DNA of 64,000 nucleotides from Spirochaetales bacterium (GCA_016935735.1 JAFGQK010000300.1:3437-67436), one strand, 5' to 3'. Counted from the stretch's first letter, positions 5,876-23,065 are shown. Numbers and translations are program-made. Notes: a model not told the origin generated them from the sequence alone.

Positions 5876-5937
5876 AAAGAGAAGATTGCCTGAACAATTG
5901 TTCCGGTCATACCGATAATAATAAATACGGTACATTC

Positions 5938-6744: not shown

Positions 6745-6768
6745 TAATATTACACTACTTGTTTATTA

Positions 6769-6842: not shown

Positions 6843-6853
6843 TTCTTACCGGA

Positions 6854-7343: not shown

Positions 7344-8477
7344 ATGAAATATAGTTTTGTAATCCCCACATATAATAATAAAAGGCTTTTAGAAAATACT
7401 CTTGAAGCATTACATCATCAGGAGGGTTTCGGAAAAGATGAGTACCAGGCAGTGATAGTGGATGACGGCTCGGATGATAATACACACCAAATCATTGAAA
7501 AGCAAAACAGGAACTATAATCTGAAATATATTTTTTTGGACAGGATGACAGACTCATGCAGGGCAAAAGCAAGAAATTGCGGCTGGAAGAATGCAGATGG
7601 AGAAATAATTATTTTTATTGATTCGGATATAATTGTGAAGAGAAATTATCTGTCTCAATTAACCGGATGTTATGAAATGGAATCTAACATGGTTGTTTTC
7701 GGAACCAGGTTGATGCTGCAGGATGATATAGAGACGGAAGAAATATCAAATGGTGAAATATTCAGAAAGTATAAATTCGATAGATCCAAAGCGGAATATT
7801 TTGAACACAGACATTATTTGTTTAACACAATGTCATACAATATCAATTGCTTTTTAGACCCATGGTTGTATGCATACAGTTGTAATGTGGCTATTCCCAG
7901 GAAGATTATAAATGAAGAAAGGGGATTTGATGAGAACTATAAAGGCTGGGGAGTAGAGGACCTGGAATTGTCATATAAAATATATCTTAAGGGAGTAAAG
8001 TTTGTATTCAACAGCAATCTTGAAGCTTTTCATCAAAATCACACCAGAGCAACCAATGTTAACGTAAAAAGTGGTGTATATAATGCTGAATGTTTTATAC
8101 GTAAGTATCCTGATGCTTTAAAAATATTTCCTCACGAGGTTAAAAAACTCTTGCTGATAGGCGGCCTTGAACACGATTTTACAGGCATGCAGGAAGAAGT
8201 GGAATATATAGGAAAGAAAATAGAAGCTTGTTTACCTCCAAACACTAAATGCAATAAAACTGAAATAATAGAGTTCAAAAATAAAGCGGATATTGACAAG
8301 ATTAAAGCAAAAATTAAGAAATTAACAGCGAGCAGCGATATTAGAATTATTGTAAACGACTATGTAGAAGACACTGATTTAGGTATCTGGATACAATTAC
8401 TTGATAAGTCTGGAAGCGTACCGCTGTATTTTGTAATGTCAAAAAAATTGAATGCCCCTGGTTTCCCGGGGCCTTGA
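7344..8477 (+). CDS. Family-2 glycosyltransferase (GT-A fold) with a roughly 120-aa conserved C-terminal extension; paralog of 9991..11154
   Basis: YSFVIPTYNN ... VIVDDGSDDNT ... IIFIDSDIIV (DxD). C-terminal region shared with its paralog (DY.E..DLGIWIQLL). Confidence 0.8.
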   Translation: MKYSFVIPTYNNKRLLENTLEALHHQEGFGKDEYQAVIVDDGSDDNTHQIIEKQNRNYNLKYIFLDRMTDSCRAKARNCGWKNADGEIIIFIDSDIIVKRNYLSQLTGCYEMESNMVVFGTRLMLQDDIETEEISNGEIFRKYKFDRSKAEYFEHRHYLFNTMSYNINCFLDPWLYAYSCNVAIPRKIINEERGFDENYKGWGVEDLELSYKIYLKGVKFVFNSNLEAFHQNHTRATNVNVKSGVYNAECFIRKYPDALKIFPHEVKKLLLIGGLEHDFTGMQEEVEYIGKKIEACLPPNTKCNKTEIIEFKNKADIDKIKAKIKKLTASSDIRIIVNDYVEDTDLGIWIQLLDKSGSVPLYFVMSKKLNAPGFPGP

Positions 8478-8687: not shown

Positions 8688-9866
8688 ATGGAATATACAG
8701 TAGGAACTAATTGGGATTTTGATTTAATAGATAAGATAAATTACCCTGAAGTAAAGTCGGTATTCGGAGGAATTCCCGATGCATTGATCGCAAGTGGAAG
8801 ATCATCCTTTATGATCAATCCGATTCAGGAAGAAAACCTGAAGAATTATATAGGTAAAGTGCACGAAAAGGGGTGGAAGTTCGAATTTAATGTCAATTCT
8901 GGTTGTATAGAAAATATCGAGTTAACACCGGCAGGGCATAAAAAAATATTGAAATATTTTGAGTGGATAGAAAGCCTGGGTGTTGATTCTGTTATTATTA
9001 GCATACCGAACTTAGTCCAGATAGTTAAAAAGTTTTTTCCGAAACTGGAAGTTAAAATATCAACCTATCAAAAAATAAATAGTGTGGAAATGGCCACCCG
9101 TTTTGAAGATATGGGAGCAGATGCGATAATGCTTTCAGAACATATAAACAGGGACTTCAAGCTTTTACAGGGAATAAGAAACAATATAAAGTGTAAATTG
9201 ATGCTGATCGCAAATGTGGGATGTGTTTATGCGTGTGCAAACATGCATAGCCATACAAACAGCGTAGCACACAGCGGTGCGGAATCAGCAATCAATACAA
9301 TATTAACCGAGGTGTATGCAGCGGATTGTTTATACAAAAGGATCAGCAATCCCGTGGAATTAATAAAATCACGCTGGATCAGACCGGAAGATGTCGGTTA
9401 CTACGAAGAAATAGGGATAGATATGTTTAAAATAATCGACAGGCATTCGAGTACAGAGGCCCTGGCAGAAAGAATGAAAGCATACCACGAAAGAAGTTAT
9501 GACGGTAATCTTATAGATTTACTTGGCCAGATCATCAACAAAAAAAAGGGTGCACCTATAGATATGGATAGAGTCTTTAATCTGAAAAATCCTGAAGATA
9601 TGAAAAAAGTGGAAAAATTCTTAGGGGTCTTAAATATCTTAATTTCCGATCTATATTACCTTGATAATAAAGCAATACCCGATGACTTTTTAGAAGAATT
9701 TAAAAAGAGAGATTGCAAAAGGATGTCCTGCCTGAAATGCGGTTACTGTAAAAAAATTGCAGACATGGTAATAAAGAAGACCCAGGATGACGAACAGATT
9801 CAAGGGACTATACATATGCTTAAAGAAGTAAAACAGGAGATACTTGACGGATCTTTACTTTATTAG
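8688..9866 (+). CDS. Peptidase U32 family protein (collagenase-like TIM barrel; the family that includes the Fe-S O2-independent hydroxylases UbiU/UbiV, RlhA and TrhP)
   Basis: Block-wise similarity to U32 proteins: N-terminus GTNWDFDLIDKINYPEVKSVFGG (compare AGNLEKL ... YGADAVY.GG); VDSVIISIPNLVQIV; LEVKISTYQKINSVEMATRFEDMGADAIMLSEHI; Cys-containing segment NVGCVYAC; C-terminal cluster CKRMSCLKCGYC. Confidence 0.6.
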   Translation: MEYTVGTNWDFDLIDKINYPEVKSVFGGIPDALIASGRSSFMINPIQEENLKNYIGKVHEKGWKFEFNVNSGCIENIELTPAGHKKILKYFEWIESLGVDSVIISIPNLVQIVKKFFPKLEVKISTYQKINSVEMATRFEDMGADAIMLSEHINRDFKLLQGIRNNIKCKLMLIANVGCVYACANMHSHTNSVAHSGAESAINTILTEVYAADCLYKRISNPVELIKSRWIRPEDVGYYEEIGIDMFKIIDRHSSTEALAERMKAYHERSYDGNLIDLLGQIINKKKGAPIDMDRVFNLKNPEDMKKVEKFLGVLNILISDLYYLDNKAIPDDFLEEFKKRDCKRMSCLKCGYCKKIADMVIKKTQDDEQIQGTIHMLKEVKQEILDGSLLY

Positions 9867-9990: not shown

Positions 9991-11154
9991 ATGATAAAAT
10001 ATAGTTTTGTGATACCTGCTTATAATAATAAACGGCTTCTCAAGAACACTCTGATAGCCTTGAATTATCAGGAGAATTTCGGAAAAGAAGATTACGAAGT
10101 TGTTATAATAGATGATGGCTCTGACGATAATACAGAAGCTTATATCAGTGATATAAACAAAAACTATGCTTGCCAGTACATTTACATTGAAAGAGACGAG
10201 AAATCCTGCCGGAGCAGAGCAAGGAATTACGGCTGGAATGCTGCAAAAGGCGGGGTAATAATTTTTATTGACTCGGATATATTAATTAATAGAAATTATT
10301 TAAAAGAAATCGAAAGATGTTTTGATATAGATGACAATATTATATTATTTGGTACAGTATTCAGGCTTAAAGAGGATATTTCCCTGGAAGATGTTGAAGA
10401 TGGAAGCATATTTAAACAATTTGTTTCAGGAATCAATAAAATAGAATATCTGGAAGAAAGGCATATTTTTTTTAATATTTTTTCCTATAATAATTATTTT
10501 CATCCTTTCAGTTGGAGTTTTGTTTTTAGCGGTAACGTCGCTGTATCCAGAAAAAACCTGAAGGCTATAGGCGGATTCGATGAAGCTTACGTGTGTTGGG
10601 GAGGAGAAGACACTGAATGGGGTTACAGGGCATATAATAATGGATTAAGGCTTGTATATAATCATAAACTTGAGGCATTGCATCAGTATCACCAGGAAGA
10701 GATACAGAAAAAAAATTCCAGTAATAAAGCCAATCTGGATTACTTTTTCAGAAAACATCCTCAAGCATTAAGTTTCTTACCGGAGGAATCAAGATATAAA
10801 GTCTTGTCTGGATTTTCAAAAAACGAGGAAAATACAATAAAAACTGAAGCTGAAATGAGAGACAGATTAATCAGGATACTTAATGATGTTGAAAAGAATA
10901 TACGAGATACAAATCAAAAAATAGAGATAACTGTTGCTTTGCGGGATAAAAATAGGTTTTTAGAGATAAAAGAAATAATTGACTTCTTATCAAAAAGACC
11001 GGGGATTTTATTAATAGTCAAGGATTATAATGAAACCGGTAATCTCGATGTATGGATTCAGTTAATGGGTAAAAGAGAAAGCACCCCAATGTATTACCCG
11101 ATGAATAGGGAAAAATTTGATGATTTTATCAGAAATTATAGAAGCAGCCTTTAG
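9991..11154 (+). CDS. Family-2 glycosyltransferase (GT-A fold) with a conserved C-terminal extension; paralog of 7344..8477
   Basis: YSFVIPAYNN ... VIIDDGSDDNT ... IIFIDSDILI. C-terminal LLIVKDYNETGNLDVWIQLMG. Confidence 0.8.
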   Translation: MIKYSFVIPAYNNKRLLKNTLIALNYQENFGKEDYEVVIIDDGSDDNTEAYISDINKNYACQYIYIERDEKSCRSRARNYGWNAAKGGVIIFIDSDILINRNYLKEIERCFDIDDNIILFGTVFRLKEDISLEDVEDGSIFKQFVSGINKIEYLEERHIFFNIFSYNNYFHPFSWSFVFSGNVAVSRKNLKAIGGFDEAYVCWGGEDTEWGYRAYNNGLRLVYNHKLEALHQYHQEEIQKKNSSNKANLDYFFRKHPQALSFLPEESRYKVLSGFSKNEENTIKTEAEMRDRLIRILNDVEKNIRDTNQKIEITVALRDKNRFLEIKEIIDFLSKRPGILLIVKDYNETGNLDVWIQLMGKRESTPMYYPMNREKFDDFIRNYRSSL

Positions 11155-11275
11155 GCAAACAGGAGATAGTAAGCTTTATTAAATCGATTAGTTCATATAA
11201 ATTCTATAAATAGGCAATATATAAAAAACGATCGGAAAGCGGTAGAGAATATAGTTAATTGGTATCATATACCAA

Positions 11276-11429
11276 CAATCTTTTGGATTGCCGGTATTTC
11301 CAATAGTAGTGGTTGCCTGAAAATTATCAGGACTAATTTATTATACTATAAAGAATTATTCACCATGCTAAATGTACCGATGAGGCAAATCACTTTATTA
11401 AGGAGTATATGTTATTTTACGCAAAATAA
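11276..11429 (+). promoter_or_regulatory. Structured leader element D1 (paralog of D2 at 14067..14181). It ends in an SD sequence plus the 6-codon uORF MLFYAK.
   Basis: About 70% identity to the region upstream of the 3HCDH gene. Conserved segments: ttttggatt..tatttccaat.gtagtggtt.gcc and ggcaaa.cactttat.aaggagtata.atg. Long-range complementarity agtggtt(t)gcc / ggcaaa(c)cact. Confidence 0.5.
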
Positions 11430-11436
11430 CAAAGTA

Positions 11437-11519
11437 TTGGCCGCCAGGTTAATAAGATCAGTATAATTTTAAAAGAACCTGGACAGTCTGTTAATTGGGT
11501 GGGCGTAACCAACGTTATG
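11437..11519 (+). repeat. Island-specific structured repeat element A, copy 1 (+ orientation)
   Basis: ttggccgccaggttaat ... aaaagaacctggacag ... gttaattgggtgggcgtaaccaacgttatg. Conserved internal inverted repeat ccaggtt/aacctgg. About 75-80% identical to copies at 16994..17080 (reverse) and 23066..23153. Confidence 0.7.
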
Positions 11520-11538
11520 TTAAATAAAAAGGAATAAG

Positions 11539-12273
11539 ATGCAGTATATTACCAAAAAGTTAATTGAAACCACTGGTATTATTGAGATTAATAATCCACC
11601 CCGGAATCTCATCGATGAACCGGAATTCCTCGATATCGATGATTTAAATGGCTGGATAATAAAAAACTCTTTAAAAGGAGTAATCATCAGAGGGGTGGGC
11701 AGGAATTTTTCCGCCGGTGCCAATAAAGAGAAATTTTACGAGAAAGTAATAACAAATAAGACAATGGAGGGGGAGTTCAGCCGGGGGAGAAAGATTCTTA
11801 ACTTTTTTGAGTCTCTGACCATACCCACCCTGGCCTTGATACAGGGGGCTTGTTTCGGGGCGGGTTTGGAAATTGCACTCAGTTGTCATTTAAGAATTTG
11901 CAGCGACAATGCCCTCATCGCCTTTCCTGAATCCAATTATGACCTGATGCCCGGTTTCACAGGCACCTACAGGTTACCCAGGTTAATCGGCAAAGGTAAA
12001 TCCCTTGAAATAATATTATCAGGGGAGATAATAGATCCGCTTAAGGCCCTGGCATACGGAATTGTGGATTATGTAAAACCGAAAAAGGAAGCTGATGATT
12101 TTGCCCTTGAATTGCTAAAAAAATTGACAGCGAACAGGCCGCTTCATGTGATCAATGCGATTACAAAATCAATAAATAATTATTTTCTGCTGGATAGAGA
12201 CTCTGCTTTAAAAGAGGAAGCCAAACTATTCTGTCAGCTGGTGAGACAAAAATATCATGATGAAAAAACTTGA
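11539..12273 (+). CDS. Enoyl-CoA hydratase/isomerase (crotonase-fold) family protein
   Basis: Crotonase-fold motifs: IIRGVGRNFSAGANKE, FGAGLEIALSCHLRI, FPESNYDLMPGFTGTYRLPRLIG. Confidence 0.75.
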   Translation: MQYITKKLIETTGIIEINNPPRNLIDEPEFLDIDDLNGWIIKNSLKGVIIRGVGRNFSAGANKEKFYEKVITNKTMEGEFSRGRKILNFFESLTIPTLALIQGACFGAGLEIALSCHLRICSDNALIAFPESNYDLMPGFTGTYRLPRLIGKGKSLEIILSGEIIDPLKALAYGIVDYVKPKKEADDFALELLKKLTANRPLHVINAITKSINNYFLLDRDSALKEEAKLFCQLVRQKYHDEKT

Positions 12274-12940
12274 TTCCATTCTTTGGGAAGAAGCGGATAG
12301 GATAGGTCATTTGATACTTAATGATCCTCCTGCTAATCCAATGGATGTTCATTTTTTTGAAATCCTGCAGCAGATAATAGATGTGAAGATTGATATCGAC
12401 AACATTGATGCTCTTGTGATATATGGACAGGGCAGACATTTTTCTGCCGGTGCGGATCTTGAAGATGTTACACGAGATGTGGTAACTGATACATTAAAAT
12501 ATCCTGATGCCTTGTGCCGGAATAGCCGGGCTTTTTCCTTTTTTTCGGACATGACTATACCGGTGATTGCTTTAATAAATGGGGTTTGTCTGGGATCAGC
12601 TCTTGAACTGGTCTTATGCTGCCACATCAGAATTGCCGGCAATACTGCCCTTTTAGGATTGCCCGAGTCCACCTTCGACTTGATGCCGGGCTGTGGAGGA
12701 ACACAAAGATTGGTGGATATAGTCGGCCTGTCTAAAGCCATGGAAATGATTTTTACAGGTAGTAATTTGAATGCAAAAGAAGCACTGGAAGCCGGTTTAG
12801 TGGATGCTGTTTTCCCAAAGACGAATATTACAACAGAAGCCACCAGGCTGGCAAAAGGTATTGCTGAAAATTATCAAAAGCACGATAAGAGACAATATAT
12901 AAAAAAATATTTATCCGGGCAGGTGACAAAATATGAGTAA
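12257..12940 (+). CDS. Enoyl-CoA hydratase/isomerase (crotonase-fold) family protein, second tandem copy
   Basis: GQGRHFSAGADLE; LGSALELVLCCHIRIA; LPESTFDLMPGCGGTQRL. Overlaps the preceding gene by 17 nt. Confidence 0.75.
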   Translation: MMKKLDSILWEEADRIGHLILNDPPANPMDVHFFEILQQIIDVKIDIDNIDALVIYGQGRHFSAGADLEDVTRDVVTDTLKYPDALCRNSRAFSFFSDMTIPVIALINGVCLGSALELVLCCHIRIAGNTALLGLPESTFDLMPGCGGTQRLVDIVGLSKAMEMIFTGSNLNAKEALEAGLVDAVFPKTNITTEATRLAKGIAENYQKHDKRQYIKKYLSGQVTKYE

Positions 12941-14048
12941 TAAATATGTAAAACTGATGGGCTGCGGTTCCTATCTGCCGGGCAAGCCTGTACCTTTTGA
13001 TGATGTGGATAAAGTATTGGGCTGTTTTACAAAAGCTCCACCCCAAATTATCAAGTGGTTGGAAAATATCAAACCGGTGATGAAAGAGATCCTGGAAGTA
13101 AAGTATTATCATTATGCCATTGATCCCGAAACCCGGGAATTTACGGAAGATAATCTGAGTCTTTGTGTAAAAGCTGCAGGGAAGGCGTTAGCCGACTGCG
13201 GCATGGAACCCGGTGATATTGATTTTATCATCTACGGAGGGCCCTACCTGTACCAGATGCCTTGCCTTTCAGTACAGATTCAGGATGCCCTGGGTATTGA
13301 AAACTGTGCAGAAATGTCCATCCAGGCAAACTGTACATCCGCCTACAAGGCGCTGATGACGGCTTATCACCTGATTCGTGACGGGGGCTGTAGGACACCC
13401 CTGGTACTTTCTTCGAATATGCCCAGTGCCCAGTTAAGGGTTGAACATTATCACCAGGAAATTGTCAGGAAAGAAGACCTGTTTTTGCGCTGGTTTTTAT
13501 GTGACGGGGCCGGGGCGTTGATTCTGCAGGAAAGTAATGAGAGATCAAAGGGATTTTACATTGAAAATGTCTATCTGGAATCACCCGGTAGGAGGAAACC
13601 TTCAGCAATGTATACGAACTGGCCGGGATATTATCTCAATCCGCAGGAGGTTTATGAAAAGGGTCTCCATCACTTGAAACAGATGTTTCAAAAGCAGTTA
13701 ACCGAACATTTTCACGAGGAAGGGGGAACTATTTTTTTTAAAGGATTGATGCGGATGATCGAAAAATGCAACATCGATCTCGGCCGGCTTAAATACCTGC
13801 AGATAAATATGCCTTCCAGGCATGTGGTGGATTTGATCATCGATGAGTGTAAAGTCCTGGGAATAGAGAAAGAGCAGATATATTCATCATTGAGTGAATA
13901 CGGATATACCGGGCCTCCTGCAGCCTTTATTTCCATAGACCAATTTGTGAAAGAAAAGAAATTAAACCACGGTGATTTACTGATCAGCTTTGTGACCGAG
14001 GTAAGTAAGTTTATGCAAGCCGGTTTCAGTTTATCTTATTTTGAATGA
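12933..14048 (+). CDS. Thiolase-fold condensing enzyme: 3-oxoacyl-ACP synthase III (FabH)-like, or alternatively an HMG-CoA-synthase-like enzyme
   Basis: FabH-like layout: VKAAGKALADCGMEPGDIDFIIY; candidate nucleophile IQANCTSAYKAL; His in NMPSRHVVD. Length 371 aa. Distinguishing FabH from HMGS would need HMM scoring. Confidence 0.55.
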   Translation: MSNKYVKLMGCGSYLPGKPVPFDDVDKVLGCFTKAPPQIIKWLENIKPVMKEILEVKYYHYAIDPETREFTEDNLSLCVKAAGKALADCGMEPGDIDFIIYGGPYLYQMPCLSVQIQDALGIENCAEMSIQANCTSAYKALMTAYHLIRDGGCRTPLVLSSNMPSAQLRVEHYHQEIVRKEDLFLRWFLCDGAGALILQESNERSKGFYIENVYLESPGRRKPSAMYTNWPGYYLNPQEVYEKGLHHLKQMFQKQLTEHFHEEGGTIFFKGLMRMIEKCNIDLGRLKYLQINMPSRHVVDLIIDECKVLGIEKEQIYSSLSEYGYTGPPAAFISIDQFVKEKKLNHGDLLISFVTEVSKFMQAGFSLSYFE

Positions 14049-14066
14049 CGGGGAATTTATTGACAA

Positions 14067-14181
14067 TGTTTTGGATTATCAGTATTTCCAATCGTAGTGG
14101 TTTGCCAATTATTTATATTATAAAAAATTATTTCTCACCTCAAATCGTCAGGTGGGGCAAACCACTTTATAAGGAGTATAA
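14067..14181 (+). promoter_or_regulatory. Structured leader element D2 (paralog of D1), immediately upstream of the 3HCDH start. Contains a TTGACA hexamer at 14060..14065.
   Basis: An 11-bp long-range stem agtggtttgcc (14096..14106) / ggcaaaccact (14156..14166) encloses an inner hairpin cacct ... aggtg and an AT-rich segment. The SD aaggag lies just 3' of the stem. Confidence 0.5.
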
Positions 14182-15351
14182 ATGATACAATGCGTCGGTG
14201 TGATTGGTACAGGGAAAATGGGTACCAATATTCTCGATTACCTGTTACATTATGATTTTAAACTCAGATGGAAGTGCCACTACGAAAAAGATGTGTCAGT
14301 TCTGGATTCATTAATAGATCGAAAAGTAAAGCGTGTGCTGAAAATGCAGGAGCGTTATGATGAAAATACTTTTATACAGTACAGGGGGCGGATACAGATA
14401 AGCAGTTCGATTTACGTGTTAAAAGGTTGTGATCTGATTATTGAATCGGTAACGGAAGATAAAACGGTCAAGACCGATGTATTCCGTCAACTGAATCAAA
14501 TTATCACTCCCGAAACTATCTGTGTAACCAATACTTCCAGTCTGGATCCGGGCCTTCTGTTTCAGGGGTATAATCATAAAAATCGTTGCGGGGGCTACCA
14601 TTTTTTTTATCCCATACATTATAAAAATATCGTGGAAATCAATTGTACAGAGCAGACGGACAAAGCGACCCGGGAAATGTTAATTCATTTTTCAGAAAGT
14701 ATAAAAAAGCAGTACCTCATTCTTGATGAACCGGACCATTTTATATTGAATCGTATATTCTGCCCCCTCCAGGCACAGGCTTATCTTTTTCTGCAGGAAG
14801 GGATACTTACTGTTGATGAACTGGATAGTTTAATCCGGGAAAAAGTTTTTCCAATAGGTGTATTCGAGTTTATCGATTCAGTGGGGATAGATATAATCAG
14901 CACTTCTGTAAAAAATTATCTTTCCCATTATGCTCATAAGGAGTTTTTTAATCCCTGGATAGAGGCTATGGAGCAAATGGTTGCAACAGGAAACCTGGGT
15001 AAAAAAAGCGGCCAGGGATTTTACCGTTATTTGAAAGGGGGAAAACAGGCTATGATTTTTAATAATCAAAACAAAAACCCGCAGGCCCCCGGAGAATATA
15101 AACAAAGGGTCACTGATATGCTGGAAGCCCTCTATTTAAACGGATTCTGCCATGAAACAGGCAATATTCCCCCGGGAATTCTGGATAATGCAATAAAGGA
15201 ATATTGGGGAATGGATACGGGACCCCTTGATTTGTTGAAAAAAAGCGCCATCAATCAGCTGCGTTTAATGGAATTTTATAAAATGACAGGGAATGAATTT
15301 TATAAACCCGCGGCTGCCTGGGAAGGAGTGAACCAATTAAAAGAAAAGTAG
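14182..15351 (+). CDS. 3-hydroxyacyl-CoA dehydrogenase family protein (NAD-binding)
   Basis: Rossmann motif VGVIGTGKMG. 3HCDH signatures CDLIIESVTEDKTVK ... TNTSSL. C-terminal 3HCDH_C-like helical domain. Confidence 0.8.
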   Translation: MIQCVGVIGTGKMGTNILDYLLHYDFKLRWKCHYEKDVSVLDSLIDRKVKRVLKMQERYDENTFIQYRGRIQISSSIYVLKGCDLIIESVTEDKTVKTDVFRQLNQIITPETICVTNTSSLDPGLLFQGYNHKNRCGGYHFFYPIHYKNIVEINCTEQTDKATREMLIHFSESIKKQYLILDEPDHFILNRIFCPLQAQAYLFLQEGILTVDELDSLIREKVFPIGVFEFIDSVGIDIISTSVKNYLSHYAHKEFFNPWIEAMEQMVATGNLGKKSGQGFYRYLKGGKQAMIFNNQNKNPQAPGEYKQRVTDMLEALYLNGFCHETGNIPPGILDNAIKEYWGMDTGPLDLLKKSAINQLRLMEFYKMTGNEFYKPAAAWEGVNQLKEK

Positions 15352-16562
15352 TGATTAGCGGAATTGATATGATAACGGCCCTGGGATTGAATTATCAAAC
15401 CTGTTGGGAGAATTTGAAGAACGGACAGTCCGGGGTAAAAAAAATAACTCTTTTTGATCCGGAAGATAATGAAACCCGGATAGCTGCCCAATTACCCGAT
15501 GGTTTTGAAGAGTACGCCCGCGGTTATTATACCCGGAGACTTAAGCAGCAGATGACCCGGGTAACAAGAATGGCGTATGTCTGCGCTATTAATGCGGTGA
15601 ATAACAGCAGGATCGACTTTAACATGTTTGATCCTCTGCGGGTGGGTGTTATCCTGGGAATCGTGGATACCGGTTATAACAGCCTGGAACAGGAAGAAAG
15701 TGAGGACAATAGAATCCTGAAATCGATGAACAATGCTCCCTGTGCCTTATTATCCATCAAGTATAAGATTGAAGGCCCCTGTTTTCCTGTTAGCACCGCC
15801 TGCTCTTCCTCCGGGTATGCCATCGGTCTTGGGTATGATCTTATCGATAACAATAGATGTGATGCTGTTATTGTCGGGGGGGCGGATTCAACCCTGAGTC
15901 CGGAACAGGTGCGGGGATTCAACGAGTTATACGCTTTAAGTGTGAATAACCCGGAACCGGAAAAGGCCTCTTGTCCCTTCAGCCGGGAACGTGATGGTTT
16001 TGTGATCGGTGAAGGGGCTGGTATGCTTATCCTGGAATCCGAAGAGTCCGCATTAAAACGCAATGCGGAAATCTATGGGGAAATCGCCGGTTATGCGATG
16101 ACGACGGAAGCCTATAATTTACTTTCCCCGAAAAAGGATGGCGAGGGTATGGTGCGAACAATGGAACTTGCCGTCAAAAACGCCGGGATGACCGTTAATG
16201 ATATTGATTATATCAACGCCCATGGGACATCGACCTTCCTCAATGACCTCTGTGAAACCATGGCCATCAAAGCGCTTTTCAAAGAAAGGGCTTATTCTAT
16301 TCCTGTCACTTCGAGTAAATCAATGATCGGTCATACTATAGGGGCTGCCGGGGCTATAGAATCGATCATAACCGCTTTAAGTATAAAGGAAGGAATCCTT
16401 ACACCTACCATAAATCTGGAGTTTAATGACCCGGAATTGGATCTTGATTATGTTCCTTGCAAAGCCAGGAAGCAGGTTATCAACACCGGACTTTCCAATT
16501 CTTTCGCTTTTGGAGGACACAATGTTTCTATTGTTATTAAAAAGGCCTTTCGTAATCTTTGA
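15351..16562 (+). CDS. Beta-ketoacyl-ACP synthase (FabF/FabB-like KS, active-site Cys present)
   Basis: VSTACSSSGYAIG (catalytic Cys), HGTST and GHTIGAAG His motifs. GTG start overlaps the preceding TAG stop. Confidence 0.85.
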   Translation: MISGIDMITALGLNYQTCWENLKNGQSGVKKITLFDPEDNETRIAAQLPDGFEEYARGYYTRRLKQQMTRVTRMAYVCAINAVNNSRIDFNMFDPLRVGVILGIVDTGYNSLEQEESEDNRILKSMNNAPCALLSIKYKIEGPCFPVSTACSSSGYAIGLGYDLIDNNRCDAVIVGGADSTLSPEQVRGFNELYALSVNNPEPEKASCPFSRERDGFVIGEGAGMLILESEESALKRNAEIYGEIAGYAMTTEAYNLLSPKKDGEGMVRTMELAVKNAGMTVNDIDYINAHGTSTFLNDLCETMAIKALFKERAYSIPVTSSKSMIGHTIGAAGAIESIITALSIKEGILTPTINLEFNDPELDLDYVPCKARKQVINTGLSNSFAFGGHNVSIVIKKAFRNL

Positions 16563-16658
16563 AGGTTTCATCACCGGAAAAACAGGAGTATTGATCAAAA
16601 TTTCTTATTGTAATATAATGTGTCAAATTGCACAAAATTTATAAGGTGGAGTATGTTA

Positions 16659-16961
16659 ATGAAAAAGATAACTGAAAATACACGTGCCGAGGTTAAAGAT
16701 ATCATATTTGACTTTTTAGCCGATGCATGTGAAATAGAGAAATCGGAATTAAATGAAGATATGAAAATTATCGAAGAATTGGGGGGCGATTCCCTGATGT
16801 TCTTAAGTATGCTGGAAATATTCAAGAAAAAATATAATTTGAATGTTGAACTGAAAGCCATCGGCAAATATATCTTAAAACATCCTGCAGAAACAATCGG
16901 GGAAATCATTGATGCTACTTTAGTAATTATTGAGTATGAAAATAGGATTGTTGACATGTAA
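16659..16961 (+). CDS. Acyl carrier protein
   Basis: LGGDSLMFLSMLE phosphopantetheine-attachment (DSL) motif. Start chosen at the ATG 8 nt after SD aaggtgg. The listed ORF extends further upstream. Confidence 0.75.
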   Translation: MKKITENTRAEVKDIIFDFLADACEIEKSELNEDMKIIEELGGDSLMFLSMLEIFKKKYNLNVELKAIGKYILKHPAETIGEIIDATLVIIEYENRIVDM

Positions 16962-16993
16962 CCGATAGTTCCCCCGGGCTGTCGAACTTATAG

Positions 16994-17080
16994 CATAACG
17001 TTGACTACGCCCACGACCCGGATAATGAGCTGTCCAGGCTCCAATTAATTATACTAATCTGTTTAACCTGGCGGCAGGCG
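16994..17080 (-). repeat. Repeat element A, copy 2 (reverse orientation)
   Basis: Its reverse complement reads cctgccgccaggttaaacagattagtataatt ... cctggacag ... gggcgtagtcaacgttatg, homologous to A1 and A3. Confidence 0.7.
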
Positions 17081-17085
17081 TTTAT

Positions 17086-17134
17086 CTATTTTGTTTAAAA
17101 TCTTGTTATTTTAACAAGATTTTAAACAAAATAG
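17086..17134. repeat. Perfect 49-bp palindrome P1 (23-bp arms, 3-nt centre)
   Basis: ctattttgtttaaaatcttgtta ttt taacaagattttaaacaaaatag. Homologous to P2 at 23012..23061. Confidence 0.85.
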
Positions 17135-17157
17135 TATATATAAGGAAGTTTTATTGC

Positions 17158-18096
17158 TTGTATTTATGTATGAAAAATAATGTAATGGCAGATATTGTGT
17201 TCCCGGCTTTTGGTGCGGAATACCTGGGTTGCGAAAGGGATTTTGTCCAGCAGGAAACAACCGGGATTGAATTTTACCTGCAAAGAGCGGAAAAAGCTGT
17301 AGATATCGATAAGCAGTTTATTGAGGCGGATAAAGGCGCAGAGGTCTACGATGAATTGCAATCCCAGTTTGCCAGCTATATTTACAGCTGTATCTTTGCG
17401 GATATCATTAATCAACGAGGAATCAAATCCGGGCTGGTGGCAGCGTATAGCATGGGATTGTACGCGGCCTTATACCATTGCGGAGTTTTTTCTTTTGAAG
17501 ATGGTTTACGCATTATCAGGGATGCCTGTCAACTGGCTCAGGCCACTGCAAAAGGTAAAAAGTTTGCTATGGGGGTCATTGTCGGTTTGGATGTTGATGA
17601 TGTAAAAGGTTTGATTTCCGCCCATGCAACCGGTGTGGATATAATCAATATCAACAATCAATATCAAATCATTATCTGTGGGCCGGAGAATGAAGTCGTG
17701 AAAATAATTACTGCTGCTCAAGATGAGGGGGCGTTGAAAGCTTATATCCTGCAGATAAAAAACCCCTATCATACAGCCCATGTAAAGTCTGCAAGGCATG
17801 AATTTGAAAAAGTGCTGGAAACCTATTCATTACAAAACAGCAAATACCCTCTGGTCTCTTCTCTGGATCAGAAGATATACAATACCCGGAAGGAAATAAT
17901 TAATGAAATGGTTAAAAACATTTATAATTCTTCCAACTGGTATAAAACAATGGAGGTATTGATTGAAAAGGGTTCAAAAAAAATCATCGAGTGCGGTCCG
18001 GGAAAGAGCCTTTGTAATATGGCCAGATTCATACCAGGGGATTACAAAATATACCATATGAAACTGGTTTACAATAATAATTTCAACCTCAAATAA
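17158..18096 (+). CDS. Acyltransferase (malonyl-CoA:ACP transacylase-like, FabD fold)
   Basis: FPAFGAEYLG N-terminus. Nucleophile elbow AYSMGLYAAL in the GHSxG position. Length 312 aa. The true start may be one of the internal Met residues (MADIVFP). Confidence 0.6.
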   Translation: MYLCMKNNVMADIVFPAFGAEYLGCERDFVQQETTGIEFYLQRAEKAVDIDKQFIEADKGAEVYDELQSQFASYIYSCIFADIINQRGIKSGLVAAYSMGLYAALYHCGVFSFEDGLRIIRDACQLAQATAKGKKFAMGVIVGLDVDDVKGLISAHATGVDIININNQYQIIICGPENEVVKIITAAQDEGALKAYILQIKNPYHTAHVKSARHEFEKVLETYSLQNSKYPLVSSLDQKIYNTRKEIINEMVKNIYNSSNWYKTMEVLIEKGSKKIIECGPGKSLCNMARFIPGDYKIYHMKLVYNNNFNLK

Positions 18097-18134: not shown

Positions 18135-19478
18135 CTAAATAGTATCCGTGCCTTCTTTAATCAACCAGAGATCGGAAACATTTTTATAAAATTCTTCGAG
18201 GGGTAATGTTGTTTTTAATACCGAATTAAAAAAATTGTATTTATTAAGGTCATAATCAATAATCTGTTCCTTTACTTGATTGTAATACACAGTTCCGGGC
18301 ATGGGAGTAAGAATCGTATACCCCGCATAGACTACTTTGTGGGAGTTTGAATAATCAGCCATGGCCTTAAAATCATCTTCCTTATAATAAGGAGGAATGA
18401 CATAATTTCCCCGGATCTTTATCCCATTGGCCTGGAGTATATTAATCGCCTTTTCTATCAGTTCCGGCCTGGTATCTTTATTATATTTTTTTAATTCATC
18501 ATAGCGATAGGATTCAAAACCGCAGATAACTACTTGCAGACCGCATTGAGCCAGTTTCTCGATTAAATCGGGATGCGCGGCTACCGTGTCTACACGAATA
18601 TCAATGACCAGCTCCTTTTTTATGTTTTCTTCCAGGATACGGTCACATAATTGGTGAATGAATCCGGGATTCACGACTGTGTTCGCATCGGCAAAACGAA
18701 TAACGTTATACTCAGGATCTATGGATTGCATTTCATCAATAATGCTTTTTATCTCCCTCTGGTAAAATTTTCCTTTGTATTGAGGCCGGATGGAACAGAA
18801 AGAACAATTGTAGGGGCATCCCAGTGAAGTAAAAATATAGGTGATCGGGCCGATTTTTCCCCGTATTTTGTAGGCCTGTATCCATTTTTTGATAAATGAA
18901 CGGTCCGGCACGATAAAATCCTGCCCGGCTGAATAATACCGGGTTGTTAAAGGCTTTCCGGGAACCAATTGATTGTGCTTATTAATTAATATTCCGGCAA
19001 CGGCTTCTACATCTTTGTTTTCCTGTTTTGCGCTGACGATTTCTCTGAAAATTTTAGCGGATTCCCCGGGACAGATAATATCCGCCGCGGTACTGATAAA
19101 ATCCTCCGGACATAATGTTGCATGGAGTCCGCCGGCAATGGTAAGGATGTTATGATTATAGGTTTTTACAGTTTTTAAAATAGCGGCTCCACCGTTAAAT
19201 TCCGATGCTATAAAAGTAACCCCGACCAAATCAGGATTGATTTTTTCAAGGTATTGACGGGTTAATTCGCCGGGGGGAGGAGCATGCGGGTGTAAATCAT
19301 ATTCTGCTTTCATATCCAGGACTGTAACATCATGGTCCCTGACTGCCCCGGCAACGGTCAATAATCCCAACGGAGGGCCGATTAATTTCTGATGAATAAA
19401 TTTTTTGGCATCTGCAGAAGCATAGTGAAATATTCCATTTTCATTTGATCTGGGCGGATTGATTAAAAGAATTTTCAT
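18135..19478 (-). CDS. B12-binding domain radical SAM protein (class B rSAM)
   Basis: N-terminal cobalamin-binding-like domain (ILLINPP ... GPPLGLLTVAGAV). LGCPYNCSFCS CxxxCxxC motif. Length 447 aa. Confidence 0.8.
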   Translation of the reverse strand: MKILLINPPRSNENGIFHYASADAKKFIHQKLIGPPLGLLTVAGAVRDHDVTVLDMKAEYDLHPHAPPPGELTRQYLEKINPDLVGVTFIASEFNGGAAILKTVKTYNHNILTIAGGLHATLCPEDFISTAADIICPGESAKIFREIVSAKQENKDVEAVAGILINKHNQLVPGKPLTTRYYSAGQDFIVPDRSFIKKWIQAYKIRGKIGPITYIFTSLGCPYNCSFCSIRPQYKGKFYQREIKSIIDEMQSIDPEYNVIRFADANTVVNPGFIHQLCDRILEENIKKELVIDIRVDTVAAHPDLIEKLAQCGLQVVICGFESYRYDELKKYNKDTRPELIEKAINILQANGIKIRGNYVIPPYYKEDDFKAMADYSNSHKVVYAGYTILTPMPGTVYYNQVKEQIIDYDLNKYNFFNSVLKTTLPLEEFYKNVSDLWLIKEGTDTI

Positions 19479-19692: not shown

Positions 19693-19807
19693 TAACTGAA
19701 AAATTATAGAGGGCAAGTTGTAATTTCCTAAATAAATTTTAACTCTTGACAGGGAAATTTGTCTTAAAAGAATCTATTTTAAACAAACAGAAAGAAGGAT
19801 TTTGTTT

Positions 19808-20773
19808 ATGGAAAATGATATTTTTCAGAAAGATTTGAAACACATAGGGATTGTCCTTTCATTTACATGTAATCTGAAGTGTAAAATGTGTAAATTATGG
19901 ATGAAGCCCCCATTGTCGCTTTCCCTGGATTCGATCAAGAGTATATTAAAACAGGCTAAAGCATTGGGTGCAGACATTTTTACACCTTTCGGGGGGGAAC
20001 CGGTATTAAGAAAAGATATTTTTGAAATTTTTAGTTATGCCCACCAATTAGGGTATGATATTGAATTTGTGACAAATGGAACTTTAATCAATGAGCAGGT
20101 AGCTGAAAGATTATTCAAGTATATATCCGGGATTTCCATATCCATTGAAGGATCGAAAGAACATCACGATGAAATAAGAGGTAATGGGACTTTTGATAAG
20201 GCAATCTCCGCAGTCAAGTTTCTGACAAAGTACAAACGCCGGGATGCGAATATCTGTTTAACTATGGTCGTAACCAAAAATAGCTATAAATATATGAAAA
20301 AACTTGTCGATTTGGCCAGTGAGCTCAAAGTTGATAAAATTTTTTACCAACCTTTCAACAGGGCCCAGGCAAGAAAAGAAAATGTACATGACTTTCTGGT
20401 CCCGGCAGTCGAAATTCCCGTTTTGCAGCTGGAAATAGAGAGTACCATCAATTATGCAATGCACAAGAATGTACAATTGGGTTCTGTTATCGAATTTAAA
20501 TTGATCCCTTTATACTTTAAACTAAATGGTAAAATAAAACCAACAAAAGGATGCTTCTTACCATACCATGATATGTTAATTATTCCCAATGGTAAAGTAT
20601 TTGCTTGTCCCTTCGAGCGTATTGAAGTAGGTGATATCAATGAGAACAATCTTGACTATATCTGGAATTCCGAAAAATATGAAAAACAAAGAGAAAAAGC
20701 AAGATTAAAAAAATGCCGCGGTTGTCTTGCCAATTGCTCAGATTTGGATTCATATAAAATAGAAAGTGCATAA
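19808..20773 (+). CDS. Radical SAM protein with C-terminal SPASM/twitch Cys-rich domain
   Basis: FTCNLKCKMCK CxxxCxxC. C-terminal CFLPYH ... ACPFE ... CRGCLANCSD. SD gaaagaagga 8 nt upstream of the ATG at 19808. The listed ORF begins at an upstream TTG. Confidence 0.8.
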   Translation: MENDIFQKDLKHIGIVLSFTCNLKCKMCKLWMKPPLSLSLDSIKSILKQAKALGADIFTPFGGEPVLRKDIFEIFSYAHQLGYDIEFVTNGTLINEQVAERLFKYISGISISIEGSKEHHDEIRGNGTFDKAISAVKFLTKYKRRDANICLTMVVTKNSYKYMKKLVDLASELKVDKIFYQPFNRAQARKENVHDFLVPAVEIPVLQLEIESTINYAMHKNVQLGSVIEFKLIPLYFKLNGKIKPTKGCFLPYHDMLIIPNGKVFACPFERIEVGDINENNLDYIWNSEKYEKQREKARLKKCRGCLANCSDLDSYKIESA

Positions 20774-20798
20774 AATCCTGGTATAACCGCAGAATAAT

Positions 20799-21644
20799 TT
20801 ATTTTAAACCGTTATGCGATTTATAATATTTTACGATGAGACATTCGTTAAAACGCTTTATTACATTATATGCTAAACCAAAGCCGTCAAGCAATTTCTT
20901 AATTTCATTACGTTCACGATAAGGTGTATCACCAGGAAGACTGTCATACAGATCTTTTGGGTCGATATTCATCTCTTTCGCCTGCATAAAAATTTCGGCC
21001 ATTTCCTGGCGTTCTTTTTTTAATATTCTTGAGAAAGTAATCCTTATCTTTATCCAGGAAAAAAAAACTCTCAAAAAATCTTTGTTTGTATATGTCATTA
21101 TCTGTTTTACCGCAAGCAAAGAACCTTTCCGGGCAAGTTCATCAATATCATTAAGTCTTTTGCGCTTTAGCTTACCCGAGGAATCAAGAATGCCGATTTT
21201 TTTATAAATTCTTTCAAGTACTCTCTCGACCTGGTAAAATGCGACAAAGAGGTGACCATGCAATGCAACAACACGCATAGCCTCATTAATTATTGTTTTG
21301 ATTAGTTTCTCATCCGAAAGACGATCCACCACACCGGAAGAAATAATAACTGTTTTATAAGAACAGTTCTCAAAAGGCAGGCTTCTTGCATTTGCTTTTA
21401 TTAATTTAATGGAATGCCTGATATAGGCGTATTTTATCATTTCATCTACGATATCGACACCGTCGGCTATATAACCTTTATCACGGAGATGTTTTACTAT
21501 CAGTCCCTGTCCTGCACCGATTACCAATACAGGGCTTGCAATATCATTAATTATTTTATCCGTCACATGAGTATTCATGTGACGGTTTTCCATTTTATCC
21601 CAGAAAGGACTCCATATTGACCACCATTTTATATTCTTATCCAT
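20799..21644 (-). CDS. Class I SAM-dependent methyltransferase
   Basis: VLVIGAGQGLIVKHL motif I, acidic D after the beta2 strand, Rossmann-like layout. Confidence 0.6.
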   Translation of the reverse strand: MDKNIKWWSIWSPFWDKMENRHMNTHVTDKIINDIASPVLVIGAGQGLIVKHLRDKGYIADGVDIVDEMIKYAYIRHSIKLIKANARSLPFENCSYKTVIISSGVVDRLSDEKLIKTIINEAMRVVALHGHLFVAFYQVERVLERIYKKIGILDSSGKLKRKRLNDIDELARKGSLLAVKQIMTYTNKDFLRVFFSWIKIRITFSRILKKERQEMAEIFMQAKEMNIDPKDLYDSLPGDTPYRERNEIKKLLDGFGLAYNVIKRFNECLIVKYYKSHNGLK

Positions 21645-21898
21645 AAATATTTCTCACTTTTAAAATAATTTTTAACCCATCGCAGCCTTCGGCTGCAACC
21701 AGAGTAGTTCCAAAAATCTTCTTAAAATTGGAAGATTTGGGGGTATAATACTATATTACTTGAGTTTGTCCCGCAACCCCAAACAAGGCAAGCCAATAAC
21801 ATCCATCCATTATATATGGGGGCGTGATTGAATTAAGGCATACTATATATAGCATTGATAGAAGGCAATTTCATCATAATTGAAGTTGTCGGACAACC

Positions 21899-22879
21899 TC
21901 AATGATAGACCTCTTGATGGACTAAAGCAGCCTGTCCCTGCTCCAACCACCTGGCGCAATCCGGGGGTAGTATTTCAGAAACAGTAGTTTCATAAAGGAC
22001 TATCTCATCTTCAGACAGGACCCCTTTCCAGCGATTATTCGTTCCTCTGTACAAAAAACGCTGGCTTCCGCCAAAGAAAGCTTTTCCCCCACCTGGAACG
22101 ATATTATCCGCATTGTTTTTCATCGACTTGAATGATGCATTATCAAGTAAAGTTGGCCAGATATCTTCATTTACTTCAATATCAAGATATCTTGCGATCA
22201 GACGTATTTGCCTATCAATATCTCCTAAAAGATCATTGAAATGCATCAGCAAAATATTGGGTAGATGCCTGTAAGCCCACCATGTTTGCACATTGTTCAG
22301 AATTGATAAACCAAGATTTCCCTCACCTAATCCGGAGAACCAGCCTTTAGTCATAAAGTCTTTAAAGAATTCGTGAATATCATCTGATGGGCGAGTAAGG
22401 GGATCACCGACCCGGCCAGGGGTATTGTTGAATATGTCAAACATTTCCGGCGTTAAATGGCGGTAGTGATTCCAGAGAGACATAAAAATATCTCGTCCGT
22501 CACGCGCAATGTAGATATATTTTACCTGTGGATAATAGATAAGACCGTCGAGGGGTAGGTGCGTTTTGACAAAGCGCCGATGAGTTTGCGCTTCGATGAG
22601 ATCAAATTGCTTTTTAATCATGGCGGGCCGAAAATCGATCCACGGTGATAACTGCCAGATCGGTGCAGGTATTTCTTGATTTTGAAAAATCAAATGAGCA
22701 ACAATGGTCTGTATCCATGTTGTCCCCGATTTGCCGGTAGTGGCGATGATAATGTCATCAGCACGCGGTTTAAAATCATTCCAATAGGTGCTGTCCATGG
22801 TATGATTTTGATAGATATGATTGACGCTCGGCAGTGGTGACATTCCCCACGGTTCACCTTTATTATTTTTTGTTGTCAT
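21899..22879 (-). CDS. PAPS-dependent sulfotransferase family protein
   Basis: 5'-PSB motif TGKSGTTWIQ and 3'-PB motif RDGRD ... typical of Sulfotransfer_1 domain enzymes. Confidence 0.8.
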   Translation of the reverse strand: MTTKNNKGEPWGMSPLPSVNHIYQNHTMDSTYWNDFKPRADDIIIATTGKSGTTWIQTIVAHLIFQNQEIPAPIWQLSPWIDFRPAMIKKQFDLIEAQTHRRFVKTHLPLDGLIYYPQVKYIYIARDGRDIFMSLWNHYRHLTPEMFDIFNNTPGRVGDPLTRPSDDIHEFFKDFMTKGWFSGLGEGNLGLSILNNVQTWWAYRHLPNILLMHFNDLLGDIDRQIRLIARYLDIEVNEDIWPTLLDNASFKSMKNNADNIVPGGGKAFFGGSQRFLYRGTNNRWKGVLSEDEIVLYETTVSEILPPDCARWLEQGQAALVHQEVYH

Positions 22880-23061: not shown

Positions 23062-23065
23062 ATAA

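Follow-up and report, generated by a model that had tools for sequence, protein, structure and literature searches.

In glycopeptide producers, one thiolase-fold condensing enzyme, DpgA, and two crotonase-fold helpers, DpgB and DpgD, serve the synthesis of 3,5-dihydroxyphenylacetyl-CoA, the crotonases aiding ring dehydration; DpgA is a type III polyketide synthase (PKS) with a Cys-His-Asn catalytic set that decarboxylates malonyl-CoA and uses CoA esters. The DarABC and StlCDE pathways to dialkylresorcinols (DARs) and stilbenes, found in Photorhabdus, Chitinophaga and Flavobacterium, employ a dedicated acyl carrier protein (ACP) and a Cys nucleophile and borrow their intermediates from fatty acid synthase (FAS) or beta-oxidation. 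The clostridial butyrate pathway (Hbd-Crt-Bcd/EtfAB), a reverse beta-oxidation, runs a reductase of the 3-hydroxyacyl-CoA-dehydrogenase (3HCDH) fold and a crotonase-fold dehydratase in the synthetic direction, and the FabM isomerase and RpfF diffusible signal factor (DSF) synthase are crotonase folds acting on ACP thioesters, each a single enzyme added to canonical FAS. The HMG-CoA-synthase (HCS) beta-branching cassettes, finally, consist of a donor ACP, a condensation-inactive ketosynthase (KS0), an HMG-CoA-synthase (HMGS) homologue and two crotonases, the dehydratase ECH1 and the decarboxylase ECH2 (PMC10006238); ECH2 uses an active-site His, with a Lys in CurF (PMC11350588). Here we analyse a 64,000-nucleotide stretch of DNA from a Spirochaetales bacterium (GCA_016935735.1, JAFGQK010000300.1:3437-67436; hereafter the window), which holds between positions 11539 and 18096 a cassette of seven co-directional plus-strand genes: two crotonases (ECHa, ECHb), a thiolase-fold enzyme (K3), a 3HCDH-fold enzyme (3HCDH), a ketosynthase (KS), an ACP and an acyltransferase (AT).

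A preliminary description of this stretch had named these seven genes and their folds, and the open reading frame (ORF) coordinates together with Pfam and NCBIfam hidden Markov model (HMM) searches bear it out, with matches that are strong and not due to chance. Its proposal of a non-canonical FAS or PKS, in which beta-oxidation folds supply reduction and dehydration, is supported as well: the 3HCDH and both crotonases keep their catalytic residues across 52 and 73 orthologues, synteny is shared by two phyla, and the island lacks both a short-chain dehydrogenase/reductase (SDR) and FabZ. We consider the cassette very probably biosynthetic and ACP-dependent, and one copy of a widespread conserved family of anaerobic Bacteroidales and Spirochaetota. 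It is best read as a self-contained, oxygen-independent pathway in which beta-oxidation folds would replace FabG and FabZ, and K3 is best explained, from its aligned active site, as a sister to the cyclising ketosynthases StlD/DarB in which the Cys survives but the His/Asn pair for decarboxylation is gone. A convergent B12-binding radical SAM (B12-rSAM) gene is part of the conserved set too. The genes are as follows.

11539..12273, plus strand: ECHa, 244-aa crotonase-fold enoyl-thioester hydratase/dehydratase (Pfam ECH_1, E 5.5e-31)
12257..12940, plus strand: ECHb, 227-aa second crotonase-fold enzyme (Pfam ECH_1, E 2.4e-35)
12933..14048, plus strand: K3, 371-aa atypical thiolase-fold enzyme resembling ketosynthase III (KSIII), with Cys134/Asn292/Tyr325 replacing Cys/His/Asn
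14182..15351, plus strand: 3HCDH, 389-aa 3-hydroxyacyl-CoA-dehydrogenase fold (3HCDH_N, E 8e-34; 3HCDH, E 2e-20)
15336..16562 (probable start; listed ORF 15351-16562), plus strand: KS, FabF-like elongating ketosynthase (fabF TIGR03150, 417 bits, cut-off 494)
16653..16961 (most likely start; listed ORF 16620-16961), plus strand: ACP, about 102 aa, GGDSL phosphopantetheine site (PP-binding, E about 2.5e-5 to 3e-5)
17158..18096, plus strand: AT, FabD-like acyltransferase (fabD TIGR00128, 156 bits, cut-off 261)
18135..19478, minus strand: B12-rSAM, 447 aa, convergent (Pfam B12-binding and Radical_SAM)

The FAS-type proteins score below the curated equivalog cut-offs of housekeeping enzymes and are thus diverged paralogues, not the cell's primary FAS. 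The closest PDB entries to the KS are FabF (E 1e-91). Pfam scans of the island recover no SDR ketoreductase, no FabZ or other hotdog dehydratase and no enoyl reductase, which leaves the 3HCDH-fold enzyme and the crotonases as the only candidates for the reduction and dehydration steps. A canonical type II FAS was rejected: KS, AT and ACP lie under the equivalog cut-offs, the island lacks FabG, FabZ and an enoyl reductase, and K3 lacks the FabH His and Asn.

Inspection of the catalytic residues suggests that the cassette enzymes look active. The Glu pair of ECHa (GLEIAL, FPE) and that of ECHb (ALEL, LPE) are each kept in 73 orthologues, and the nearest solved relatives of both are generic hydratases. 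The 3HCDH protein, presumed from its fold to be the ketoreductase of the cassette, carries a C-terminal extension of about 100 aa, and its GxGxxG and NxSS motifs, the HFFYP His and the Glu partner of that His are kept in 52 orthologues. The family lacks the acidic residue that NAD-dependent members usually have at the end of beta-2, which hints at NADPH as cofactor. The KS retains Cys-His-His (the Cys of TACSSS, the His of HGTST and the His of GHT) in 57 orthologues and is, judged by these residues, condensation-competent and not a KS0. The AT keeps Ser, His and Arg, with the GYSMG Ser and the PYH His conserved in 32 orthologues; its specificity is probably malonyl-CoA:ACP.

K3 has more than 1,250 database relatives (counted as protein clusters), the best 120 of which are 53-64% identical over their full length and, where their source is named, derive from metagenome-assembled genomes (MAGs) of Spirochaetes, Bacteroidales or Desulfobulbaceae; one protein, from a "Spirochaetales bacterium" MAG, is 100% identical. 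A scan of one genome per species places K3 relatives in 332 genomes, and each of the best 80 is a MAG, either of Bacteroidales/Bacteroidota, Draconibacterium and Rikenellaceae among them, or of Spirochaetota/Leptospirales. Among these 80 best-matching genomes and the named protein matches, the cassette is seen only in uncultured anaerobes of digesters and sediments. Homologues of every gene were then counted by tblastn in the best 80 loci, each taken with 10 kb to either side.

ECHa and ECHb: homologue in 78/80 loci
4HBT/YbgC-type thioesterase (TE), directly 5' of ECHa: 74/80 loci
3HCDH: 52/80 loci
KS: 51/80 loci
B12-rSAM: 42-52/80 loci
AT: 32/80 loci
ACP: 32/80 loci
small AcpS-like, phosphopantetheinyl transferase (PPTase)-like protein between the two ECH genes: 27-32/80 loci
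PF00891-type O-methyltransferase (OMT): about 21/80 loci

The shared core is therefore TE-ECH-ECH-K3, usually with 3HCDH, KS, ACP, AT, PPTase-like genes and B12-rSAMs. When all ORFs of the 80 loci were clustered without bias, further partners emerged: CrtI/CrtD-like FAD desaturases (20/80 loci), a C45 acyltransferase/hydrolase (16/80), a BtrH_N/DUF4872 protein with a 157-aa partner (16-17/80, in both phyla) and a second, classical AcpS (6/80). By the same clustering there are 99 B12-rSAM copies across 52 loci; single loci hold up to three such genes of different subfamilies (e.g. L003 5446-6864; L053 16678-19506). An enoyl reductase is missing from most loci. In the closer relative L091 (K3 56% identical), a co-directional run of 15 genes has the order TE, ECH, ECH, K3, B12-rSAM, 3HCDH, KS, ACP, AT, a PEMT-like methyltransferase, a PF00891 OMT, a U32-like gene, EtfB, EtfA and an acyl-CoA dehydrogenase. 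In the distant high-G+C relative L088 the order reads KS-ACP-AcpS(PF01648)-K3-ECH...AT...B12-rSAM. The window copy is a reduced version of the cassette, and the TE is the one cassette member missing: a search of all 64 kb for TE, PPTase, OMT, CrtI-like, C45, BtrH-like, LolA and MMPL genes found none. The copy contains the defining set, namely a Cys/Asn/Tyr K3 beside two Glu/Glu crotonases with 3HCDH, KS, ACP, AT and B12-rSAM. Literature searches aimed at the cassette returned no description of it, only background on HCS, aryl polyene (APE), flexirubin and 'ladderane' clusters.

K3 is the unusual member of the set. The QANCTSAYKAL nucleophile motif pointed out in the preliminary description is present and surrounds Cys134, and the question it raised, whether the protein is FabH-like or HMGS-like, is answered by the profiles: only FabH-type domains match (ACP_syn_III, 27 bits, cut-off 24; ACP_syn_III_C, 24.8 bits, cut-off 26.6), with no match to the HMGS Pfam families PF01154 and PF08540 even at E<=10. 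The best NCBIfam match is the StlD/DarB family NF005293, at 104 bits against a cut-off of 450; the DarB model NF053539 gives 73 bits against 550. StlD is also the closest solved structure by sequence (E 2e-17 with the single sequence, 1.4e-21 with a profile), at about 21% identity. Foldseek with the AlphaFold (AF2) model of K3 (pLDDT 84.5, pTM 0.86) returns StlD chains as the six best matches (TM 0.78-0.83, E down to 7e-28), followed by AbyA1, FabH, PqsD, CorB and MxnB, and HMGS is not found among the 50 matches listed.

The active-site comparison of K3 rests on alignments, in which Cys134 is invariant across orthologues, StlD His302 (FabH His244) aligns with the invariant Asn292, and the StlD/FabH Asn aligns with the invariant Tyr325 of a GYxGPP motif. 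Because His and Asn are replaced, K3 is almost certainly unable to decarboxylate malonyl-ACP, and its chemistry is best read as a non-decarboxylative joining or cyclisation. About 90 residues, many of them polar, are invariant in 26 K3 sequences at about 55% identity, and an exhaustive HMMER search places K3 in a wider "GY" clade that shares its residue losses, whereas the flanking clades, including StlD/DarB-like proteins, retain Glu, His and Asn. An ordinary FabH primer is unlikely given the replaced His and Asn, and a bona fide DarB/StlD is ruled out by scores and catalytic residues alike.

From gene content, catalytic-motif conservation, synteny, family placement and context, we infer substrates, an order of steps, ring formation and a product as follows. 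The AT would load malonyl on the dedicated ACP, and the FabF-like KS would extend an acyl primer to a 3-oxoacyl-ACP; the 3HCDH-fold enzyme would reduce this 3-oxoacyl thioester and a crotonase dehydrate it to 2-enoyl-ACP. As an enoyl reductase is lacking as a rule, the chain would stop at the 3-oxo or 2-enoyl stage. K3 would hold one chain on Cys134 and join it to a second thioester without decarboxylation, while the two crotonases may contribute to dehydration or aromatisation, in the way that DpgB and DpgD help DpgA, to give a cyclohexanedione/resorcinol-type or similarly branched head group. In other genomes the hotdog TE, missing in the window, would release the product by hydrolysis, and the B12-rSAMs would modify it, elsewhere together with a phenol-type OMT and the U32-like protein. 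The B12-rSAM is presumed to be a C-methylase or a tailoring enzyme that forms C-C bonds. The U32 family includes O2-independent hydroxylases, e.g. UbiU/UbiV. Given the StlD kinship of K3, the recurrent phenol-type OMT and the U32-like gene, the simplest guess is a head group of the ring type, similar to DARs, although we hold the ring-forming reading tentatively, at somewhat less than an even chance.

Genomic context in Bacteroidales is consistent with such a product. The Flavobacterium johnsoniae flexirubin cluster holds darA and darB, whose products supply the pigment's dialkylresorcinol half (PMC3992019), and some Bacteroidales cassettes likewise sit in flexirubin-type clusters. In the complete Bacteroidales chromosome of locus L053, the cassette lies directly after flexirubin-type genes, namely an ACP, a KS, a chain length factor (CLF)-like gene, a KS-CLF fusion, a polysaccharide deacetylase and a FabZ/ApeI-like dehydratase. 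Two more of the genes that the cassette directly follows encode proteins above the NCBIfam cut-offs for flexirubin LolA2 (221 bits, cut-off 125) and LolB2 (84 bits, cut-off 60), and a GT2-DUF2062 gene comes after the cassette; the genes around the cassette are the gene set described for flexirubin clusters. Within the 21 kb read there, K3 is the sole DarB relative, at 107 bits against the NF005293 cut-off of 450 and 89 against the NF053539 cut-off of 550, and in some of the Bacteroidales flexirubin-type clusters with the cassette, no gene of DarB grade appears in the 10 kb read to either side. In locus L087, an MMPL-acyltransferase-methyltransferase fusion, two CrtI-like genes and a C45 gene stand 5' of the cassette. 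The APE gene list as described lacks the TE-ECH-ECH-K3(-3HCDH) module (PMC8253772). The possibility that ApeR is a KSIII relative was dropped, since ApeR is a FabB-like KS.

Several observations weigh against the ring-forming reading. StlD Glu154 aligns with Ser/Asn in K3 and StlD Ser340 with Pro, and K3 could therefore not use the published StlD mechanism unchanged. Both residues reportedly have catalytic roles in StlD, Glu154 being the proposed base. A DarA/StlC-type aromatase was not seen, and the DarB scheme alone does not explain the need for two hydratase-type crotonases. In about one third of the loci the TE-ECH-ECH-K3 core has neither 3HCDH nor KS within 10 kb of it. APE/flexirubin hallmark genes, of the set KS/CLF, KR, DH, LolA/LolB-like, MMPL/RND, LPLAT and GT, occur within 10 kb in only about 18 of 80 loci (about a quarter), those of some Bacteroidales, and the window has neither these hallmark genes nor a thioesterase.

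The alternative that survives best, which we nevertheless regard as rather unlikely, is a type II FAS/PKS-like system making a linear unsaturated (polyenoyl or 2-enoyl) or methyl-branched acyl chain, in which KS, 3HCDH and crotonase would iterate without an enoyl reductase. K3 would then be no more than a starter or transfer acyltransferase that uses its Cys to pass acyl groups between CoA, ACP and an acceptor, the B12-rSAMs would add methyl groups, and TE- or BtrH-like enzymes would release or transfer the chain. The missing enoyl reductase of most loci agrees with such a product, as does the loss from K3 of every residue known for decarboxylation or enolate formation in its relatives; BtrH_N-like genes of the ACP-acyltransferase type in 16 of 80 loci and both phyla, the linkage of some loci to polyene (APE) machinery and the L003 B12-rSAM that approaches TIGR04072 (335 bits) point the same way. 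However, the roughly 90 invariant residues of K3 exceed the apparent need of a simple transacylase, the strict TE-ECH-ECH-K3 core persists where KS and 3HCDH are not nearby, and the phenol-type OMT and U32 partners suggest a hydroxylated, ring-like product.

We consider it improbable that the cassette only supplies substrate to a 'ladderane-type' membrane-lipid cluster of anaerobes, in which B12-rSAMs would remodel an ACP-bound chain by radical chemistry. The abundance of B12-rSAMs (99 copies in 52 loci) and the CrtI/CrtD-like desaturases of 20 loci would suit this account, and in L003 the B12-rSAM beside 3HCDH reaches 335 bits against the cut-off of 360 of TIGR04072, a so-called ladderane-type 'lipid biosynthesis B12-binding/radical SAM protein'. 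'Ladderane' calls of biosynthetic gene clusters (BGCs) in non-anammox anaerobes are, moreover, an acknowledged unexplained class (10.1101/2022.12.20.521206; PMC2649909), and some cassette relatives probably fall within it. The window B12-rSAM, however, is not TIGR04072-like (34 bits) and matches HpnR and BchE best in NCBIfam, far under cut-off, and many Bacteroidales loci combine the cassette with an OMT and have no rSAM within 10 kb. In part of the loci, the cassette shares B12-rSAM, CrtI-like, KS/ACP, LolA2/LolB2, MMPL and acyltransferase export genes with 'ladderane-type' and APE/flexirubin BGCs, but the module also occurs without any APE genes, as in the window.

Membership of an HCS beta-branching cassette, the other possibility put forward at the outset, is not supported. 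The likeness to PksF/G/H/I-AcpK, CurB-F and VirC-E is real: a discrete ACP, KS and AT, a thiolase-fold enzyme and two tandem crotonases, the crotonases probably acting on carrier-bound thioesters and the thiolase-fold enzyme probably not decarboxylating. But K3 is not an HMGS, both crotonases are of the Glu/Glu hydratase type, the KS keeps Cys-His-His and is not a KS0, the 3HCDH is an extra that HCS cassettes do not have, and a modular PKS is lacking. A modular PKS or nonribosomal peptide synthetase (NRPS) is absent from the window, a modular PKS likewise from the conserved gene families of the 80 loci and from annotated related loci, and the phylogenetic range, anaerobic Bacteroidales and Spirochaetota, is different.

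An HCS-like unit that is analogous to the known cassettes and not homologous with them is improbable as a way of working. Here K3, acting like HMGS, would add the enolate of an acetyl or acyl group to a beta-keto thioester; dehydration would fall to ECHa and decarboxylation or isomerisation to ECHb, and KS, ACP and AT would supply the donor. The composition mirrors HMGS, ECH1, ECH2, KS0 and donor ACP (PMC10006238), the methylglutaconyl-CoA hydratase AUH is among the PDB matches of the crotonases, and a K3 without decarboxylation residues is as expected for aldol-type chemistry; that loss, taken by itself, makes an HMGS-like non-decarboxylative reaction conceivable but hardly probable. Against it stand the missing HMGS match in Pfam, the 25.6 bits of K3 with the archaeal HMGS model PRK04262 (cut-off 244) and the lack of HMGS among the listed fold matches. 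An ECH2 uses His with or without Lys (PMC11350588), whereas ECHb, like ECHa, has the Glu pair and shows no conserved C-terminal His across 73 orthologue pairs. K3 has an Asn where FabH and StlD have the His that we take to be the counterpart of the catalytic His of HMGS. The intact Cys-His-His of the KS, the 3HCDH that is left unexplained and the lack of a modular PKS or acceptor ACP in any locus examined argue further against this unit.

The outcome that the preliminary description set against its own proposal, a FabH/FadB-type degradation operon without ACP dependence, is not what is found: an ordinary fatty-acid or aromatic-acid degradation operon (beta-oxidation or paa-like) is suggested by the generic best matches of the crotonases and 3HCDH (PaaF, PaaH, FadB/FadJ) and by the resemblance of TE, two ECHs, 3HCDH and a thiolase-fold enzyme to PaaI/F/G/H/J, but is extremely improbable, being contradicted by the conserved linkage to KS, ACP, AT, PPTase-like genes, B12-rSAMs and OMT, by a window island without acyl-CoA dehydrogenase, acyl-CoA synthetase or true thiolase (acyl-CoA dehydrogenase is seen only in the L091 operon, plus one weak match in L049), and by a K3 that is KSIII-like and not a thiolase.

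In sum, the system appears as a hybrid of type II FAS/PKS, clostridial reverse beta-oxidation and DarB/StlD logic that fails membership of each by scores, residues and partners. With StlD/DarB it shares the dedicated ACP, the Cys nucleophile and the best matches of K3, but identity is about 21%, scores are 73-107 bits against 450 and 550, and His302, Asn, Glu154 and Ser340 are replaced; it also has its own KS, AT, 3HCDH and two crotonases where those pathways borrow intermediates. With the clostridial pathway it shares the synthetic use of a 3HCDH-fold reductase and a crotonase-fold dehydratase, and in the L091 operon also EtfB, EtfA and the acyl-CoA dehydrogenase, but condensation would fall to a FabF-like KS with ACP and AT, not to a thiolase on CoA esters, and most loci lack Bcd/Etf. 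The Dpg system offers the same combination of one condensing enzyme with two crotonase-fold helpers; the cassette differs in being ACP-dependent, in a K3 without His and Asn, and in crotonases far under the DpgD cut-off (NCBIfam, 72 and 99 bits against 400). FabM and RpfF are a precedent for crotonase chemistry on ACP, whereas the cassette pairs its crotonases with 3HCDH and appears to replace FabG and FabZ.

We note some details of gene structure. The last 17 nt of the ECHa gene are shared with ECHb and the last 8 nt of ECHb with K3, and the 3HCDH and KS genes abut; ECHb shows about 35% identity to proteins of the ECHa type. For the KS gene, the rare ATT 15336 is the probable start, not the listed GTG 15351: homologues align from the former, and a GGAAGGAG Shine-Dalgarno sequence sits 7 nt 5' of it, within the 3' end of the 3HCDH gene. 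For the ACP, whose homologues align from 16659, ATG 16653 is the most likely start, and the true start of the AT is probably ATG 17170 or 17185. The ACP and the B12-rSAM of the window are each 58% identical to proteins of the spirochaete locus L003, the latter to the product of a gene that adjoins K3. In five Bacteroidales loci, a small secreted haem-binding cytochrome-c-like protein is encoded between the 3HCDH and KS genes, at 13789-14181 in L053.

The remainder of the window is ordinary spirochaete chromosome, with a Borrelia P83/100 homologue, DnaG, RpoD, RNase P RNA, MreBCD, PBP2 and RodA. The island is bounded by tRNA-Thr (6768-6843) and tRNA-Tyr (23627-23708). Its cassette has a G+C content of 41-42% against 34-36% in the immediate flanks, and its gene order fits Bacteroidota-type loci (L063, L085), not the usual spirochaete order; both features together suggest horizontal acquisition. 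Two further elements lie upstream of ECHa.

7344-8477 and 9991-11154: paralogous glycosyltransferase family 2 (GT2) genes that flank the U32-like gene, about 77% identical in DNA over their 5' parts
8688..9866, plus strand: divergent peptidase-U32-like gene (Pfam U32, E 1e-11)

The U32-like protein is a possible accessory tailoring enzyme. It is 24% identical over 395 aa (E 1e-22) to the U32 of L091 (17921-19036), the one locus with a homologue beside the cassette; none was found in the other 80 loci. Downstream, 19802-22879 encodes a radical SAM/SPASM protein, a class I methyltransferase (weak UbiE/COQ5 and BioC-like matches) and a PF00685 sulfotransferase, none of which is found near the cassette in the other 80 loci. 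The GT2 genes and the sulfotransferase might decorate the product; as their linkage is conserved in no other locus, we do not rely on it.

Two families of intergenic repeats lie in and around the island, and neither matched any Rfam family.

11270-11410 and 14060-14181: repeat element A, about 130 nt, intergenic, with a 40-nt core 88% identical
11414-11520 (plus), 17045-17150 (minus) and 23024-23140 (plus): repeat element B, about 100 nt, 82-88% identical

The downstream copy of repeat A lies in the intergenic leader 14049..14181 (plus strand), which ends in AAGGAG and the ATG of the 3HCDH gene; the upstream copy has the same AAGGAG site, followed by only a 6-codon ORF. Each copy contains a long-range stem of 10-11 bp, and repeat A could be a duplicated promoter/leader or a cis-regulatory RNA. 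One copy of repeat B precedes ECHa, a second, inverted, separates the ACP gene from that of the AT, and the third occupies the stretch from which the sulfotransferase gene and an 83-aa ORF diverge. Its first two copies are inverted repeats that bracket the ECHa-to-ACP block, and the middle one forms a hairpin from a 23-bp perfect palindrome (fold z -7.2 and -5.6). Repeat B may be a small mobile repeat, a terminator that works in both directions or a common operator.

Other repeats occur elsewhere in the window. A 132-nt intergenic inverted repeat pair (1953-2084 and 38087-38218, 36 kb apart, 89-90% identical) carries in each copy two G+C-rich hairpins followed by T runs, and looks like a repeated double-terminator element. 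The Borrelia P83/100-like gene (2083-3738, minus strand) has arrays of a 21-nt (7-codon) tandem repeat at 2576-3100, which encode a repetitive Glu/Lys-rich segment. Intergenic arrays of an 8-nt unit (AGARGACC-like) stand at 5752-5881, just after an iron-type alcohol dehydrogenase (Fe-ADH) gene, with one more copy at 30122-30155 after an rpoD-like gene.

For the biology of these bacteria, the cassette is a common one, present in 332 species-level genomes: a dedicated acyl-assembly line in which beta-oxidation folds would take the places of FabG and FabZ. It also delimits a KSIII clade in which, of the Cys-His-Asn/Glu catalytic set, only the Cys is left, and it links K3 and beta-oxidation folds to B12-radical-SAM chemistry and, in some genomes, to flexirubin-type clusters. 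As a speculation that we think unlikely but worth stating, the cassette may be an O2-independent route to alkyl-cyclohexanedione, resorcinol or quinol-type lipids in strict anaerobes, the anaerobic counterpart of the DarAB/SrsABC phenolic-lipid or 'polyketide quinone' pathways. Ring construction and aromatisation would fall to a KSIII of the Cys/Asn/Tyr type with two crotonases and proceed by condensation and dehydration, with no need of an O2-dependent or DarA-type aromatase, followed by C-methylation by B12-rSAMs, anaerobic hydroxylation of the U32 type and action of the phenol OMT on the hydroxyl. In Bacteroidales such a route might provide flexirubin-like pigments with their resorcinol half; in Spirochaetota it might yield free lipids, perhaps glycosylated or sulfated, that are redox-active or serve in signalling. 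If the product is indeed a phenolic or quinol lipid, the cassette would account for the synthesis of these compounds by strict anaerobes with no oxygen-dependent step, and some of the 'ladderane-like' BGC calls from non-anammox bacteria could be traced to it.

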